A DNA stretch of 64,000 bases from positions 35,139-99,138 of the forward strand of contig CAKRLV010000009.1 of assembly GCA_934359755.1 (NCBI GenBank). The letters are read 5' to 3'. This document shows, in pieces, positions 43,863 through 48,900 of this stretch; within the stretch, counting starts at the first letter, position 1, and each line of letters starts with the position of its first letter. This DNA is from an uncultured Agathobacter sp. (GTDB lineage: Bacteria > Bacillota > Clostridia > Lachnospirales > Lachnospiraceae). The notes under the pieces were generated by a model. It was given only the letters and a program-made list of their open reading frames with translations. It did not search any database and was not told the DNA's origin. Both the position numbers and the translations under genes were made by a program.

Positions 43863-44126
43863 TATATTATAATAATACCACCGTTCACAATGTAAAAACA
43901 CCCCGAAACCGAAATTCCGAGGTGTAATACACTTTTCTGAAATGCCATAAGACGCTTTGGATTGTAAATATTATCTCTTTGATAACTAGAATTAACGTTT
44001 TGATATCCTGAAAAGCCCCTAAACAGGGAATTTGTGTATGACATTGTTGCATATGTGTTGTATGCTGGTGACTACCTACACATTCCCAGGACTACTCATT
44101 ACTTTAACAAAGAAAGGACTAATACT

Positions 44127-44366
44127 ATGAAAATACATTTTGCTTACTATAACCAATACAAGAACGAAATTGATATTGCTTTTGCTGATAATACACTTCT
44201 ATTCTTATCCTGTGCTGAAGCTGAAAAGAATCTCCATACTACACCTAACTCTCAAAGGCTTATTGATAACCTTGCAATTGATAATCCGCTTATGTATGCT
44301 GCACTTGCTCTTGATTGCGAGTTGCAGGCTTGGGCTGATGCTATGGATGAGGATTGGAGTATCTAA
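44127..44366 (+). CDS. Small hypothetical protein (79 aa)
   Basis: ORF with AAAGGA upstream of the MKIHFAYY start. Confidence 0.4.
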   Translation: MKIHFAYYNQYKNEIDIAFADNTLLFLSCAEAEKNLHTTPNSQRLIDNLAIDNPLMYAALALDCELQAWADAMDEDWSI

Positions 44367-44522
44367 ATATTTTATAAATGTATTGCACCTATATTCTTTT
44401 CTTGTTATTATTAATTCGGTGCTACCCTATTCGGTAGGCGGTTAGTCCTTCAGCAGAGGGACTGTGACCCTCTGATTACATAGAAATCATCTTGTATGAA
44501 ATCTTACAAAGGAGGGATGCCA

Positions 44523-44618
44523 ATGTTGACTCTTGAAAGTCTCATTGCAGTATTAGGCTTTGGCTTAACCTGTTTTGAACTTGGATATACACTCGGTAAT
44601 AAATCACACAAAAAATAA
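44523..44618 (+). CDS. Putative type I toxin / holin-like hydrophobic peptide (31 aa)
   Basis: GGAGGG RBS 6 nt upstream of the start. Peptide MLTLESLIAVLGFGLTCFELGYTLGNKSHKK has a single TM helix and a basic tail. It is immediately followed by the hairpin terminator AATCGCC...GGCGATTATTTT. Confidence 0.45.
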   Translation: MLTLESLIAVLGFGLTCFELGYTLGNKSHKK

Positions 44619-45008
44619 TCGCCCCCGGTCTGGTAAACTGAGGCGATTATTTTAATCAATTCATATACTGGACTAACCGTCTATCGGTAGTACCTTTTAT
44701 ATATTTATATTAGCATTATTCTTAAAAAAAGTCAAAATGCATTTAGTTATTTTCAATACTTTTGTTAAAATAACCTGTCTCTTCTCATACTTTCTTATCT
44801 GGGCAATAATAACTATATTCTCTCGAATCTCCCATTCTCATTGCTGTCCCCAATTTTAAAATTCCTTTCTGTATCCCAATTCTAACATATTGAGAGTCCT
44901 TTCCCATTGCTTTAGCTATTTCTGCAATAGAGACATTTCTACCTGCAAATTTAGGATAATTTATATTATACTACACTTATAATAATACTCCATCTCCTTT
45001 TCAGTAAA

Positions 45009-45788
45009 TCAATTAATTTTTCTATAATGTCCTCTTCCTGTAAATTCTATAATTCCATTATCTCTTAACATTTGCAATTGCTGTCTTATTTTGTCCTTTA
45101 CATGATGGTTATCTGGATGTTTCTCTGCAAGCAGCTCTTCAAATCTATATATCTGGTCAAGTGTAAAATCTTTATTCTCAATCATATTAACACAATTTAA
45201 CACATCTAAAGTCCATCCTCTAGCATCCAACTTACTGCCACGTAAGAATTCTGTTCTGTGTACTTTTGTAATTATCTTTTCAATAGGTATTTCCTTTTCA
45301 TTCTGTATAATATAAATTCTTCCCTCATCTGGAATCCGATTCAACAAAATGTTACATCCTGTCCATCCTGCTCGCCTTGCTGTATTTAACAATGTTTTTC
45401 TCTTTTCTATTATATCCGGTGAAAAAAAATATTTAGGTACCATAATCAAATTTTCAACTCTATAATTACTTTTATTGTAATGCATAAAGAAAAAATTTGG
45501 ATTATTAATTGAATTTATTCTCTCTATCATAGTTTTATATGCACCATCATTGACCTTTTTACCTATTGAAGTACCATTGCTTTTCAATTCATATTCCTCC
45601 CTACATGACGGGCAGAAAAAATCAGCGACCGGTCTGTTATTCTCAAAATGATATATATATTGATTTCCACAATAGGGACAAAACATATTACTCTCCGCCC
45701 ATGTTTCTGTTATTGCCCTTATTTTTTGAGACTTACTCTTATACTGTTCTCCATTTCGTTCATCCATTTGCAAATTCAAACTTATCAC
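45009..45788 (-). CDS. DpnI-like methyl-directed (G-m6A-TC type) restriction endonuclease, PD-(D/E)XK plus winged-helix
   Basis: Collinear similarity to DpnI: YKSKSQKIRAITETW, FCPYCGN...HFENNRPVADFFCPSC.EEYELKS, DGAYKTMIERI...NNPNFFFM, ARRAGWTGCNI, RGWTLDVLNC, KDKIRQQLQMLRD..IIEF.GRG.YRK. Confidence 0.75.
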   Translation of the reverse strand: MISLNLQMDERNGEQYKSKSQKIRAITETWAESNMFCPYCGNQYIYHFENNRPVADFFCPSCREEYELKSNGTSIGKKVNDGAYKTMIERINSINNPNFFFMHYNKSNYRVENLIMVPKYFFSPDIIEKRKTLLNTARRAGWTGCNILLNRIPDEGRIYIIQNEKEIPIEKIITKVHRTEFLRGSKLDARGWTLDVLNCVNMIENKDFTLDQIYRFEELLAEKHPDNHHVKDKIRQQLQMLRDNGIIEFTGRGHYRKIN

Positions 45789-46702
45789 TCCAATGCTGCT
45801 TGATATAAATCACTATTAAATCGTGTCTTTATTTTTTCTATATTTTCCTTCAAAATTTCTATAAGAATACAACTTCTCTTTTTATTTAAAGCTGCCACCC
45901 CTACAGCACCACTGCCAGCAAATGAATCTAATACAATTTCACCTTCATATGTAACGTATTCTAATATTTTTTCACATAATTCAACCGGCAGTTCACTCTG
46001 ATGTATTTTATTCTTCCTTGCGACTGGTTGAACATCAAACATAGTCGGCAGCATACCATTGCAGCCACTCATATAATGTTTTTCCCCTGTCATATCAGAC
46101 TTTTTCTTATCATACCTCATATTTCTAGCTTTGCCTTTTGAAAAAATCATTATGTCTTGTGTATTCTTAGCCTTTCTTCCTGTATTACTTACAAAAGTTC
46201 CCTTTTTCCATGGTACTTTAGAATAATAAATAAATCCTGCTTCTTTTGCATACTTTTTAATTTGGTATAAATACTCATAATTATTCTCATTCTCTGCGGG
46301 TAAAACCTCAACCAAAAAGCAGCCGTCTTTCAATACTCTAGCCTTTTCCTTAAAATCCTCTAATGTATATCGAAAACAATCATATAATGCAAAAGCTCTT
46401 GTTCCTCCTTTATTTGATTTAATATCTAACCAAGGATGATCTGTTAATATACAATCGATACTGCTATCCTTTAGCATAGATAAATCTCTCCCATTTCCTT
46501 CTATAAGCACACACTGTTCATTTTTGTTATCAATTGTTCTATATACACCCTTTGCCACTCGCTCAAACTTAACGCCTATTTTCTCATAAATACGTGCTCT
46601 AATGGTTTCTTGTGGCTTATCAGGATTTTGTTGATATGCATCTTGCAATGAAAAGCTTTCACAATCTTTAAAACAATTAAATAAATTTTCTACTAATGTC
46701 AT
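45785..46702 (-). CDS. Beta-class DNA methyltransferase (N6-adenine or N4-cytosine) with atypical motif IV DHPW
   Basis: Motif IV-like ILTDHPW precedes motif I DSFAGSGAVGVAA, which is a beta-type circular permutation. Start at MTLVEN (46702) is preceded by AAGGAGG. There is a 4-bp overlap with the DpnI-like gene. Confidence 0.65.
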   Translation of the reverse strand: MTLVENLFNCFKDCESFSLQDAYQQNPDKPQETIRARIYEKIGVKFERVAKGVYRTIDNKNEQCVLIEGNGRDLSMLKDSSIDCILTDHPWLDIKSNKGGTRAFALYDCFRYTLEDFKEKARVLKDGCFLVEVLPAENENNYEYLYQIKKYAKEAGFIYYSKVPWKKGTFVSNTGRKAKNTQDIMIFSKGKARNMRYDKKKSDMTGEKHYMSGCNGMLPTMFDVQPVARKNKIHQSELPVELCEKILEYVTYEGEIVLDSFAGSGAVGVAALNKKRSCILIEILKENIEKIKTRFNSDLYQAALE

Positions 46703-46857
46703 TTTGTATAACCTCCTTAAATTATGGATCTTGATCCTAACATAGGAAGTACACAAATAAAAGTACTAATTTTTTATTATATTTTTTATATTAATAATCT
46801 AACACAATCTGAATTTCAATATCATCCATATTTGCATTATCAGCTACATCTTTTATA

Positions 46858-47615: not shown

Positions 47616-47647
47616 TATTATATACTTGTAAGGAGGAAACAATACAA

Positions 47648-47830
47648 ATGAGATTTCGAGAAATTGAAAAACAACTCCTTGATGACGGATGGTCGCTCGT
47701 AGATGTGAGAGGTTCACATCATCAATACAAGCATCCAACCAAATCGGGAAAGGTAACAATCCCAAATCATCGAGGCGACATTCCTCAAAGGGTTGTCAAC
47801 TCCATACTCAAACAGGCGGGTCTCAAATGA
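47648..47830 (+). CDS. hicA: HicA-family toxin (mRNA interferase)
   Basis: 60 aa: MRFREIEKQLLDDGWSLVDVRGSHHQYKHP..GKVTIPNH..DI. Confidence 0.85.
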   Translation: MRFREIEKQLLDDGWSLVDVRGSHHQYKHPTKSGKVTIPNHRGDIPQRVVNSILKQAGLK

Positions 47831-47861
47831 GACCTGTCACCTTAAAAGAAAGGAGGTTTGT

Positions 47862-48263
47862 ATGAATTATATTTATCCCGCTGTTTTTTATCCGGAGGAT
47901 GACGGTCGATATTCTGTCATTTTCCCCGACCTTAATGACCTCGCCACTTATGGGGATAACCTTGCGGATGCTTTCGCTATGGCTCAAGAGGCTTGTGGTC
48001 AATATCTTTTCACTTCGTTGCGTGACGGTGATGTTCTTCCTGCTCCGTCTGCACTGGACGCAGTAGAGAAAGATGACCAAAACGCTATTGTCAACATGGT
48101 ATGTGTAAACCTCGACGAGTACGCTCGTGCATACGATGATAAGGCAGTCAAGAAAACTTTAAGCATTCCTGCATGGCTTAATACTGCGTGTGAAAATCTT
48201 GGTATCAATTATTCAAAAGTCCTCAAGGATGCTCTTATTGCAAAGTTACAAGTACATTCATAA
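47862..48263 (+). CDS. hicB: HicB-family antitoxin
   Basis: MNYIYPAVFYPEDDGRYSVIFPDL start is preceded by AAAGGAGG. C-terminal RHH-like domain. Confidence 0.8.
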   Translation: MNYIYPAVFYPEDDGRYSVIFPDLNDLATYGDNLADAFAMAQEACGQYLFTSLRDGDVLPAPSALDAVEKDDQNAIVNMVCVNLDEYARAYDDKAVKKTLSIPAWLNTACENLGINYSKVLKDALIAKLQVHS

Positions 48264-48450
48264 ATCTCATTTGTATAATATAATCAAGGGCGATGTCTAT
48301 CAAACAGATACCGCCCTCTTTTTCATTCAAAAATGTGTATTGCACAAACAACACCTGTTTTTGTATTAGTCACCCGTGTGTTACCTGTTAGTTACCGGAA
48401 CATTTTTGTGTATTTTGAGGGTGTCTGATAGATTTTTAGAATATAAGAAA

Positions 48451-48482
48451 AACCCCGAAAACACTGGATTTTCGGGGTTTGC
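48451..48482 (-). terminator. Terminator of rplM-rpsI operon
   Basis: AAACCCCGAAAATCCAGTGTTTTCGGGGTTTTT on the minus strand. Confidence 0.8.
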
Positions 48483-48507
48483 TTTGCTGTTTGAATATTT
48501 GCGTAAA

Positions 48508-48900
48508 TTATCTCTTTGAGAACTGTGGAGCTCTACGAGCTGCTTTGAGACCGTATTTCTTACGCTCTTTCATACGTGGATCTCTTGTAAGGAATCCAGC
48601 ACTCTTAAGAGTTGGTCTGTACTCTGCATCTACCTGAAGTAATGCACGAGCGATTCCGTGACGGATAGCACCAGCCTGTCCTGTGTATCCACCGCCCTTA
48701 ACATTTACGATAACATCGAACTTGTCAACTGTCTCTGTAGCAACTAATGGCTGACGTACAACAACCTTAAGTGTCTCGAGTCCTAAATACTCATCGATAT
48801 CTCTTTTATTAATTGTAATCTTACCTGTTCCTGGTACTAAATATACTCTAGCAACAGATGATTTTCTTCTTCCTGTTCCGTAATACTTTGTATTAGCCAA
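48508..48900 (-). CDS. rpsI: 30S ribosomal protein S9
   Basis: C-terminus ...[16 protein letters not shown]. Typical S9 sequence throughout. Confidence 0.95.

Follow-up and report, generated by a model that had tools for sequence, protein, structure and literature searches.

A short sequence at the 3' end of rpsI, the gene of ribosomal protein S9, was found to recur at the boundaries of accessory DNA in a contig of an uncultured Agathobacter sp. (CAKRLV010000009.1). The 64-kb window, which is the whole stretch analysed, carries this array at 42708-48900; rpsI lies on the minus strand, and outward from the gene means decreasing coordinates. Very probably, the repeat is the crossover core of an attachment (att) site at the rpsI 3' end, used by a family of tyrosine integrases of integrative and mobilizable elements (IMEs) of gut Lachnospiraceae, and the window holds three stacked integrase-less remnants, named E1, E2 and E3 outward from rpsI. 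This is supported by the repeat itself, the block boundaries, a presence or absence of E1 whose limits coincide with the cores, cognate integrases that relatives have at this site, homologies of the element ends, and the occurrence of E2 in two species.

The loci and contigs of relatives compared with the window are given L-numbers. The sibling-strain set comprised 22 human gut metagenome contigs whose RpsI protein was exactly identical to that of the window. Species B is a second, evidently abundant gut species with an RpsI of 134 aa, and its rpsI shares 77.5% nucleotide identity with the window copy. When species representatives were scanned with RpsI, the best protein identity among the matches listed was 93%, and the best rplM-rpsI nucleotide identity among them was 86%, to a metagenome-assembled genome of an Agathobacter sp. 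The Pfam assignments given below cover the main open reading frames (ORFs) in the array region.

The target gene rpsI (48508-48900, minus strand, 130 aa; Pfam Ribosomal_S9, E 3e-51) ends in the repeated sequence, the 17-mer TTATCTCTTTGAGAACT being the reverse complement of its final 14 coding bases and the TAA stop. All three cores are on the minus strand. Core 1 lies inside the rpsI 3' end (48508-48524, exact; AGTTCTCAAAGAGATAA in rpsI orientation), and core 2 is an exact copy at the junction of E1 and E2 (47269-47285). Core 3, at the junction of E2 and E3 (43971-43987), has one mismatch and reads AGTTATCAAAGAGATAA in rpsI orientation and TTATCTCTTTGATAACT on the forward strand. No further match with up to two mismatches was present in the 64-kb window. 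At this threshold the expectation was 0.01 against the three matches observed, and three or more matches occurred in none of 100 dinucleotide shuffles. Past the stop codon only one more base, an A at 48507, 47268 and 43970, was common to all copies. The core identity was thus 18 bp, exact for copies 1 and 2 and 17/18 for copy 3. A preliminary description of this DNA had reported the rpsI end to recur at the outer edges of two accessory blocks. The recurrence was real, its positions of 47268 and 43968 were right within 1-3 bases, and the block edges were confirmed by the sibling strains and the second species. The 21-bp core that it proposed, made of the last rpsI codons plus following bases, had to be shortened to 17-18 bp lying almost entirely inside the gene. 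Chance matches, which it had named among the findings that would refute its reading, were excluded by the counts above.

Cores 2 and 3 lie within a longer, diverged direct repeat (46877-47285 against 43690-43987, 77-94% identity by segment), which contains the core, an intrinsic terminator, a promoter-like site and a DUF7724 gene. According to the terminator scan, an intrinsic terminator is the first feature past each core (48480-48450, 47222-47197 and 43925-43898, minus strand). An Rfam scan of 43600-48950 revealed nothing relevant, the sole match being a sub-threshold small RNA over the rpsI terminator. The mismatches between distal cores were confined to positions 1-6 (A/C, G/A, C/A, T/A), which suggests that the crossover is located within TCAAAGAGATAA. 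The arm beside core 3 (43988-44002) holds TCAAAACGTTAA, which resembles a synonymous version of the rpsI 3' end of other species. L137 (about 4240-4290) has an alternative rpsI end that is complete, AGTTCTCTAAACGTTAA; TTCT comes next, and after it the core borne by the element. From their sequences, both are apparently fossil cores of earlier hosts.

The sibling strains differed in what follows rpsI. An integrase-bearing element stood directly after the gene in 14 of the 22 contigs, while five were window-like with E1 and E2. Single contigs carried E2 only (L002, with the restriction block and no HicAB), E1 only (L009, HicAB alone) and a decayed E2 (L004, a restriction block with two internal deletions). 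Every sibling strain carries at least E3 and one other element. The integrase-bearing element measured 9,437 bp in L005 and L008 and 9,298 bp in L006 and L010. In these four contigs it lies between AGTTCTCAAAGAGATAA, the rpsI end, and CGTTCTCAAAGAGATAA, past which come the same terminator and DUF7724 stub as after core 3 of the window. The core 1 sequence is the proximal junction of the integrase-bearing elements in these contigs and in L001. Since the cores flank integrase-bearing elements, the 17-mer is indicated to be the att core of an integrase-driven element. The genes of the L005, L006, L008 and L010 elements encode an integrase (Int), an HTH_3 regulator, an 80-aa ORF product, a Mob_Pre relaxase, an HTH_17 excisionase, a type I/IIG restriction system and two ThsB-TIR proteins. 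The L001 integrase was 87% identical to the L005-type integrase, and its cargo differs.

The clearest boundary was that of E1. L002 was colinear with window positions 47293-42000 at 98.5% identity, and its rpsI was joined to the second block exactly at the core. L002 thus equals the window minus E1, indicating that the HicAB block is a discrete unit, which came or went by recombination between cores. The presence of E2, which is missing from L009 and from the IME-bearing strains, was also polymorphic, yet the E2-lacking L009 has a divergent E1 end.

E1 is a 1.2-kb integrase-less HicAB element between cores 1 and 2 (47286-48507, minus strand). It brings an intrinsic terminator to a position just downstream of rpsI (48450-48480, minus strand), which is conserved at the proximal ends of the elements in L018, L043, L023 and L071. 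Its cargo consists of the toxin gene hicA (47648-47830, plus strand, 60 aa; Pfam HicA_toxin, E 3e-20) and the antitoxin gene hicB (47862-48263, plus strand, 133 aa; Pfam HicB_lk_antitox, E 1e-11). The latter was also called as 133 aa in L003, L007 and L009. The adjacent hicA and hicB genes correspond in content to a predicted HicAB type II toxin-antitoxin system. The distal arm abutting core 2 (47286-47330, minus strand) is of the GTAACTGACAAA... type, and in L018, L009 and L104 an arm of this type stands before the distal core.

The origin of E1 was indicated by L018, a Lachnospiraceae species representative with a 6.4-kb element (10394-16761) directly after rpsI. This element is bounded by the rpsI-end repeat of its own host (AGTTCAGCAAGCGATAA and AGTTATGCAAGCGATAA) and encodes a tyrosine integrase 53% identical to that of L005, a CI-like repressor, an HK97-type capsid protein and, at the distal end, HicA and HicB. 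The HicA proteins of the window and L018 shared 92% amino acid identity. Window positions 48336-48507, which are the 170 nt past the rpsI stop and include the terminator, were homologous to the L018 proximal end as part of a 570-nt alignment with 78% identity that spans rpsI too. Moreover, 707 nt at 47565-48271 matched the L018 distal end at 86% identity, and the distal part of E1 (47286-47564) had no homology to L018 beyond the shared arm type. Because both of its ends match the ends of the L018 element, E1 is, as judged from the alignments, derived by internal deletion from an integrative element of the L018 type, with both ends kept. A minus-strand ORF of 110 aa (47102-47434) begins in distal E1 and reads through core 2 into E2, and it was called as a 99-aa gene in L003 and L007. 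No function was obtained for it from Pfam, NCBIfam or PADLOC, and it is probably a truncated or spurious gene.

E2 is a 3.3-kb integrase-less composite between cores 2 and 3 (43988-47268, minus strand). From the proximal end outward, it contains an intrinsic terminator (47197-47222, minus strand), a full-length DUF7724 gene (46858-47127, minus strand, 89 aa; Pfam DUF7724, E 1e-36), an N6/N4 DNA methyltransferase gene (45785-46702, minus strand, 305 aa; Pfam N6_N4_Mtase, E 3e-25; PADLOC MTase_II) and a gene for a homologue of the DpnI family of methyl-directed restriction endonucleases (45009-45779, minus strand, 256 aa; Pfam DpnI and DpnI_C; PADLOC mREase_II, E 5e-106). The last product aligned over its full length with DpnI of PDB 4ESJ (residues 10-255, E 5.6e-84). 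By homology it is a predicted DpnI-type (Type IIM) enzyme, with the catalytic and the winged-helix domains present. Its place beside an N6/N4 methyltransferase (45009-46702) is an odd pairing. Farther out follow a remnant of a regulatory region or small ORF of an L042/L023-type IME (44761-44949; 72% identity to L042 12307-12495 and 69% to L023 12710-12879), a DUF6061 gene (44127-44366, plus strand; Pfam DUF6061) and the attR arm (43988-44065, minus strand). The arm carries the motif CCCTGTTTAGGGGCTTTTCAGGATAT at 44003-44028 and lies within an alignment to the distal end of the L005/L006 IMEs.

The same element was found in species B. Window positions 47285-43956 were 95-97% identical in nucleotide sequence to a core-bounded element of L101 (7847-11272), and it was also present in L102 and L104. 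The order in L101 is rpsI, core, terminator, DUF7724, a DUF7723 stub, methyltransferase, DpnI homologue, a 54-aa ORF, DUF6061, arm and core' (AGTTAACAAAGAGATAG), beyond which lie chromosomal genes unrelated to the flank in the window. In both species the E2-type element is without an integrase. Furthermore, the exact 89-aa DUF7724 protein was indexed in 4684 blocks, and all 10 places shown were in species B, downstream of rpsI. A unit that is bounded by cores, nearly identical and set in an unrelated flank indicates that E2 is a discrete core-bounded element moved between species. On these identities, E2 has recently moved between two species with different flanks. This favours site-specific insertion over local duplication or flank homology.

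The two halves of E2 have different relatives. Its proximal part is the left end of a DUF7724-type module. In the simplest species B strains (L097 and L103), this module consists of core, terminator, DUF7724, DUF7723, DUF4160, arm and core'. No intact parent was identified for the left part of E2. In the distal part, the DUF6061 protein was 97% identical in amino acids to the L042 copy, which is likewise the last gene at the distal end, in the same position and orientation; in L098, L099 and L105, too, DUF6061 closes the element distally. The L042 counterpart of 44761-44949 sits between the repressor and the AAA_25/Mob_Pre genes. Window positions 44065-43411 matched the L005/L006 IMEs at 94-95% identity, in an alignment that covers their distal end and the flank downstream. 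The motif CCCTGTTTAGGGGCTTTTCAGGATAT recurs upstream of the distal cores in L005, L097-L106 and L042, with an inverted copy near the proximal core of IMEs. E2 looks like a composite in which two elements would have been accreted, followed by a deletion across the internal junction. The possibility that the flanking terminator and DUF7724 are native chromosome was rejected, because the module in species B is bounded by a second arm and core.

Two further features of E2 were noted. The DUF6061 gene (window 44127-44366; L042 19602-19934; also L098, L099 and L105) lies on the strand opposite to rpsI, and its start adjoins the distal core. An excised circle would put it directly downstream of the integrase gene across attP, and read-through expression could occur only after excision. 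Neither DUF7724 nor DUF6061 obtained a function from PADLOC, Pfam or NCBIfam. In addition, a 31-aa hydrophobic ORF (MLTLESLIAVLGFGLTCFELGYTLGNKSHKK, 44523-44618) lies between the two halves of a 17-nt inverted repeat (44432-44448 and 44670-44686) and was also called in L012. It had no Pfam, NCBIfam or PADLOC match, with no Rfam match in the region, and its sequence makes it a candidate type I toxin-like peptide.

E3 (43690-43970, minus strand) consists of a terminator (43898-43925) and a truncated DUF7724 gene, with no distal core. It showed 82-89% identity to the left end of DUF7724 elements and a deletion of about 95 bp. The identity to the species B module was higher than that of rpsI between the two species (77.5%). 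No sibling strain, whether or not it bears an IME, lacks this terminator and stub behind its last core. E3 is best read, from its structure, as the oldest and most decayed member of the array, with its distal core lost. The first chromosomal gene past the array encodes a GFO/IDH/MocA oxidoreductase (42708-43682, minus strand; Pfam GFO_IDH_MocA, E 6e-24) and was conserved in all sibling strains. E3 ends about 8 nt from its ATG start codon, indicating that the native upstream region of this gene was replaced by element sequence. The replacing sequence carries a promoter-like site (43890-43861). The oxidoreductase ORF is open upstream through the DUF7724 stub (42708-43901), and gene callers give 342-413 aa depending on the strain.

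The association of a tyrosine integrase family with rpsI was investigated in two surveys. In the integrase-anchored survey, an alignment of seven integrases served as the query on metagenome contigs, and the best 80 loci, with 75-99% identity to the L005 integrase, were considered. RpsI-coding sequence or its 3' fragment lay 163-398 nt past the integrase stop, in convergent orientation, in 63 of these best 80. The RpsI identities in these 63 loci ranged from 70 to 100%, and thus many host species are represented. Nine of the 17 loci without rpsI had less than 400 nt of flank, and one further locus had the exact 17-mer only. At least eight long-flank loci had only a 45-54-nt fragment of the rpsI 3' end. 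In L113, L118, L123, L131, L171, L177, L182 and L184, such a fragment stands about 160-330 nt past the integrase stop and is followed by unrelated sequence, which suggests IMEs deeper in tandem arrays or longer element-borne repeats. The rpsI-anchored survey covered 80 species-representative rpsI loci among the matches listed, of which five had an intact and one a decayed homologous integrase just downstream of rpsI. The rpsI 3'-end 17-mer of the host itself recurred downstream in only 3 of the 77 loci scored, including the far end of the L018 element, and upstream in none. A Mob_Pre relaxase was present in the L005-type and L042 elements. The L042 contig is binned as Desulfovibrio piger and carries Lachnospiraceae-type rplM and rpsI (89% nucleotide identity to species B) with an rpsI-integrated IME; it is almost certainly mis-binned.

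No relative of these integrases was detected in all 64 kb of the window by tblastn or by a hidden Markov model of the rpsI-associated family. Moreover, the Pfam assignments of the main ORFs in 42708-48900 included no recombinase, relaxase (Mob_Pre) or transposase in the window blocks. The preliminary description had likewise seen no integrase, and this was upheld. It had looked to a comparison of strains downstream of rpsI and to a cognate integrase elsewhere. The comparison placed integrase-bearing elements at the same core and showed E1 to be absent exactly between cores 1 and 2 in L002, and the cognate integrase was found at the rpsI site in sibling strains and other species. Its view of successive insertions at the rpsI 3' end, with the integrase gone, agrees with our results, although three stacked elements were found rather than two. 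Between its alternatives of site-specific and homology-driven insertion, the former is favoured by the exact-core boundary of E1 and the dissimilar flanks in species B. What it called a restriction-modification block does hold a methyltransferase and a nuclease, which are not a classical cognate pair, the nuclease being of the methyl-directed DpnI type. The duplicated gene that it saw there is the DUF7724 gene, which belongs to the left end of DUF7724-type elements instead of the native chromosome.

Several points weigh against stacked remnants of IMEs. Neither an excision product (attP circle) nor an empty attB was observed, and exact-protein look-ups (RpsI, the ABC protein downstream and DUF7724) did not reveal, in the species of the window, a fully empty site at which native chromosome comes directly after rpsI. 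The E1 of L009 differs from that of the window in its last ~200 nt, and the L009 state is not a simple deletion between cores 2 and 3 of the window arrangement. Because no relaxase could be recognised in the L018 element, which does carry a capsid gene, the parent of E1 may be a phage satellite or prophage remnant and not an IME; an integrase, a CI-like repressor and an HK97-type major capsid protein within 6.4 kb are more like the former. The left end of E2 (terminator and DUF7724) resembles the chromosomal flank of rpsI and not a typical IME end, and might be a captured flank or an old element. Finally, homologous recombination in the conserved flanking genes could also spread blocks within one species. 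In a replacement of cassettes by homology, DNA taken up by transformation or conjugation would recombine through RecA in conserved flanking sequence, with rpsI as one flank and DUF7724 or the oxidoreductase gene as the second, and the short repeat would be a by-product. Such flanks, namely rpsI on one side and E3 with the oxidoreductase gene on the other, are conserved in all strains, and the left end of E2, through its homology to E3, is a possible recombination substrate. The alternative DpnI and DpnII restriction cassettes of pneumococci are exchanged by homologous recombination in their flanks, as Lacks et al. (1986) reportedly described. However, the E1 boundary falls exactly on an identity of 18 bp, which is too short for efficient RecA recombination. 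The same cores also bound elements in species with dissimilar flanks, cognate integrases occupy the rpsI site in many species, and conserved arm motifs are kept beside the cores. This explanation of the cassettes is therefore improbable. Homologous replacement probably contributes to spread within the species, and it leaves the origin of the array unexplained.

A tandem duplication in situ was also considered, in which the rpsI 3' end, the terminator and DUF7724 were copied by unequal crossing-over or replication slippage, with the restriction genes arriving later between the two copies. Copies 2 and 3 do form a direct repeat of about 300 bp in the same orientation, and the duplicated segment resembles a chromosomal flank with its terminator and small gene. 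Yet these copies are only 77-94% identical to each other, whereas the rpsI-proximal one is 95-96% identical to the element of the other species. In addition, the whole of E2 is core-bounded in species B with unrelated genes downstream, and the IME-bearing sibling strains have the distal copy only, which together make a duplication very improbable. The weakest explanation is that a short AT-rich word recurs by chance, the genome being low in GC. It is favoured by nothing except the short length of the repeat, and its likelihood is negligible in view of the expectation and the shuffles given above and of the survey of rpsI tails, where recurrences lay downstream (3/77 loci) and never upstream.

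For the insertion of elements at the att core, the mechanism that we infer comprises an order of events, a crossover position in the core, the formation of a composite by accretion and deletion, and mobilization in cis or in trans. Each integration would regenerate the last rpsI codons and the stop, put the terminator of the element behind the gene and leave a second core at the far end. New elements would enter at the rpsI-proximal core, which would retain the rpsI-side half-site, and the oldest element would end up farthest from rpsI. The order of arrival would be E3, then E2, then E1, and later deletions would strip the integrase and mobilization modules. The remnants E1, E2 and E3 resemble cis-mobilizable elements (CIMEs), in that they keep att cores and arms and are unable to move on their own. 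Their movement would need the integrase of a co-resident or adjacent intact element, and E2 may have crossed between species in trans or within a composite with an intact element.

The comparison with CIMEs can be made feature by feature. E1 (cores 1 and 2) and E2 (cores 2 and 3) are flanked by att-type direct repeats that are the same as those of integrase-bearing elements at the site. They have neither an integrase of their own nor mobilization genes, and their retained ends match intact relatives, which are L018 for E1 and L042 and L005 for the distal part of E2. As far as sequence can tell, E1 and E2 fit the structural definition of CIMEs. They are also candidates for mobilization by the integrase of another element, since the polymorphism of E1 is exact at the cores and E2 occurs in two species. 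Other assignments were rejected. The window elements are not rpsI-specific IMEs themselves, as they lack integrase and relaxase; they are derivatives and not members. The repeat is not the target-site duplication of a transposon or insertion sequence, because it is always the conserved rpsI end, no transposase is present and tyrosine integrases are associated with it. An integron was also rejected. The window has no integrase, the integrase relatives score far below the integron-integrase cut-offs, and the cassettes are bounded by gene-end cores and not by attC hairpins.

Stacked decayed elements of this kind are well known and were first reported from streptococci, where elements at the rpsI 3' end have been studied. 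IMESag-rpsI is a 9.5-kb att-flanked element at this site with a tyrosine integrase, HTH_3 and a MobV relaxase (PMC5090054). Three integrase families, Tyr_4, Tyr_5 and Tyr_7, target rpsI in streptococci, and tandem accretions and many decayed elements occur at rpsI, rpmG and rplL (PMC5357655). The streptococcal rpsI IMEs and integrative and conjugative elements (ICEs) resemble the present case in their target and in the flanking direct repeats that regenerate the gene end (PMC5090054, PMC5357655, PMC4701971). The L005-type relatives (9.4 kb) share with IMESag-rpsI the modules of a tyrosine integrase, a Cro/CI HTH_3 regulator and a MobV (Mob_Pre) relaxase, and streptococcal rpsI elements have also been reported with toxin-antitoxin cargo, as in the window. 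The present case differs from the streptococcal elements in its host, a gut Lachnospiraceae, in a window copy that has neither integrase nor relaxase, and in a cargo of the defence type. The window contributes a DpnI-like nuclease and a methyltransferase to this cargo, and relatives contribute type I/IIG restriction, ThsB-TIR and DpnII. In the Lachnospiraceae, rpsI is already recorded as an integration site through ICE_RhoA2-183_rpsI, an ICE in rpsI of Roseburia hominis (PMC12904643). This is a large intact ICE, unlike the small decayed cassettes and 9-kb IMEs found here, and the likeness considered here is that of the site.

CIMEs have been defined together with a three-step route of integration, decay and accretion (PMC5704250), and this model fits the window. 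As that article presents the CIMEs and the ICESt1-ICESt3 family of Streptococcus thermophilus (Pavlovic 2004, Bellanger 2011, in PMC5704250), integration and transfer genes are lost, attL and attR are kept, and elements stand in tandem at one att site, as in our array. Composites of the ICESt1/ICESt3 type, in the same account, arise by accretion and then deletion, as proposed here. By comparison with what the article says of that family, the target is rpsI and not fda, cis-mobilization is a putative property here, and the E2 cassette is 96% identical in two species while being integrase-less in both.

The presence of a DpnI homologue in the window, and of DpnII-type systems at the same hotspot in species B, recalls the mutual exclusivity of the pneumococcal cassettes. 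Unlike those, the cassettes here are bounded by the att cores of tyrosine-integrase elements. The DpnII-type systems (a D12 Dam-like methyltransferase, an N6_N4 methyltransferase and DpnII) were seen in strains L098 and L100, which are without the DpnI cassette. Other cargo at the site (L011 63-2120, L001 11879-20393, L104 982-7269 and L105 467-7391) includes a NOV_C-domain protein; two C5 methylases with a Type ISP enzyme and a PHP/SMC protein; BpuJI/NOV_C with HEPN; and an Eco57I-like protein with SIR2. The rpsI end is a defence-gene hotspot in both species.

A bolder reading, which we consider rather unlikely, is that the rpsI site serves as a shared exchange platform. Integrase-less defence and toxin-antitoxin cassettes would then keep the core and the arm motif of about 26 nt by selection, and would be shuffled in trans, within and between species, by the integrases of transient IMEs. 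If true, the array would in function be less a graveyard of decayed elements than something close to an integron-like defence array.

No new mechanism is revealed by these results. What is new is that an rpsI-end hotspot with tandem accretion of decayed elements, of a kind already known in streptococci, is documented in abundant human-gut Lachnospiraceae. The rpsI site turns over defence and addiction cargo, namely HicAB, a DpnI-like nuclease, DpnII, type I/IIG restriction and ThsB-TIR. It does so among strains, and even across species that differ by 22% in rpsI. With the att core and the arm motifs, the limits of such elements can be set in the genomes of gut Firmicutes. This turnover accounts for the strain-level variation at the rpsI locus, and it may explain why many metagenome contigs end there.

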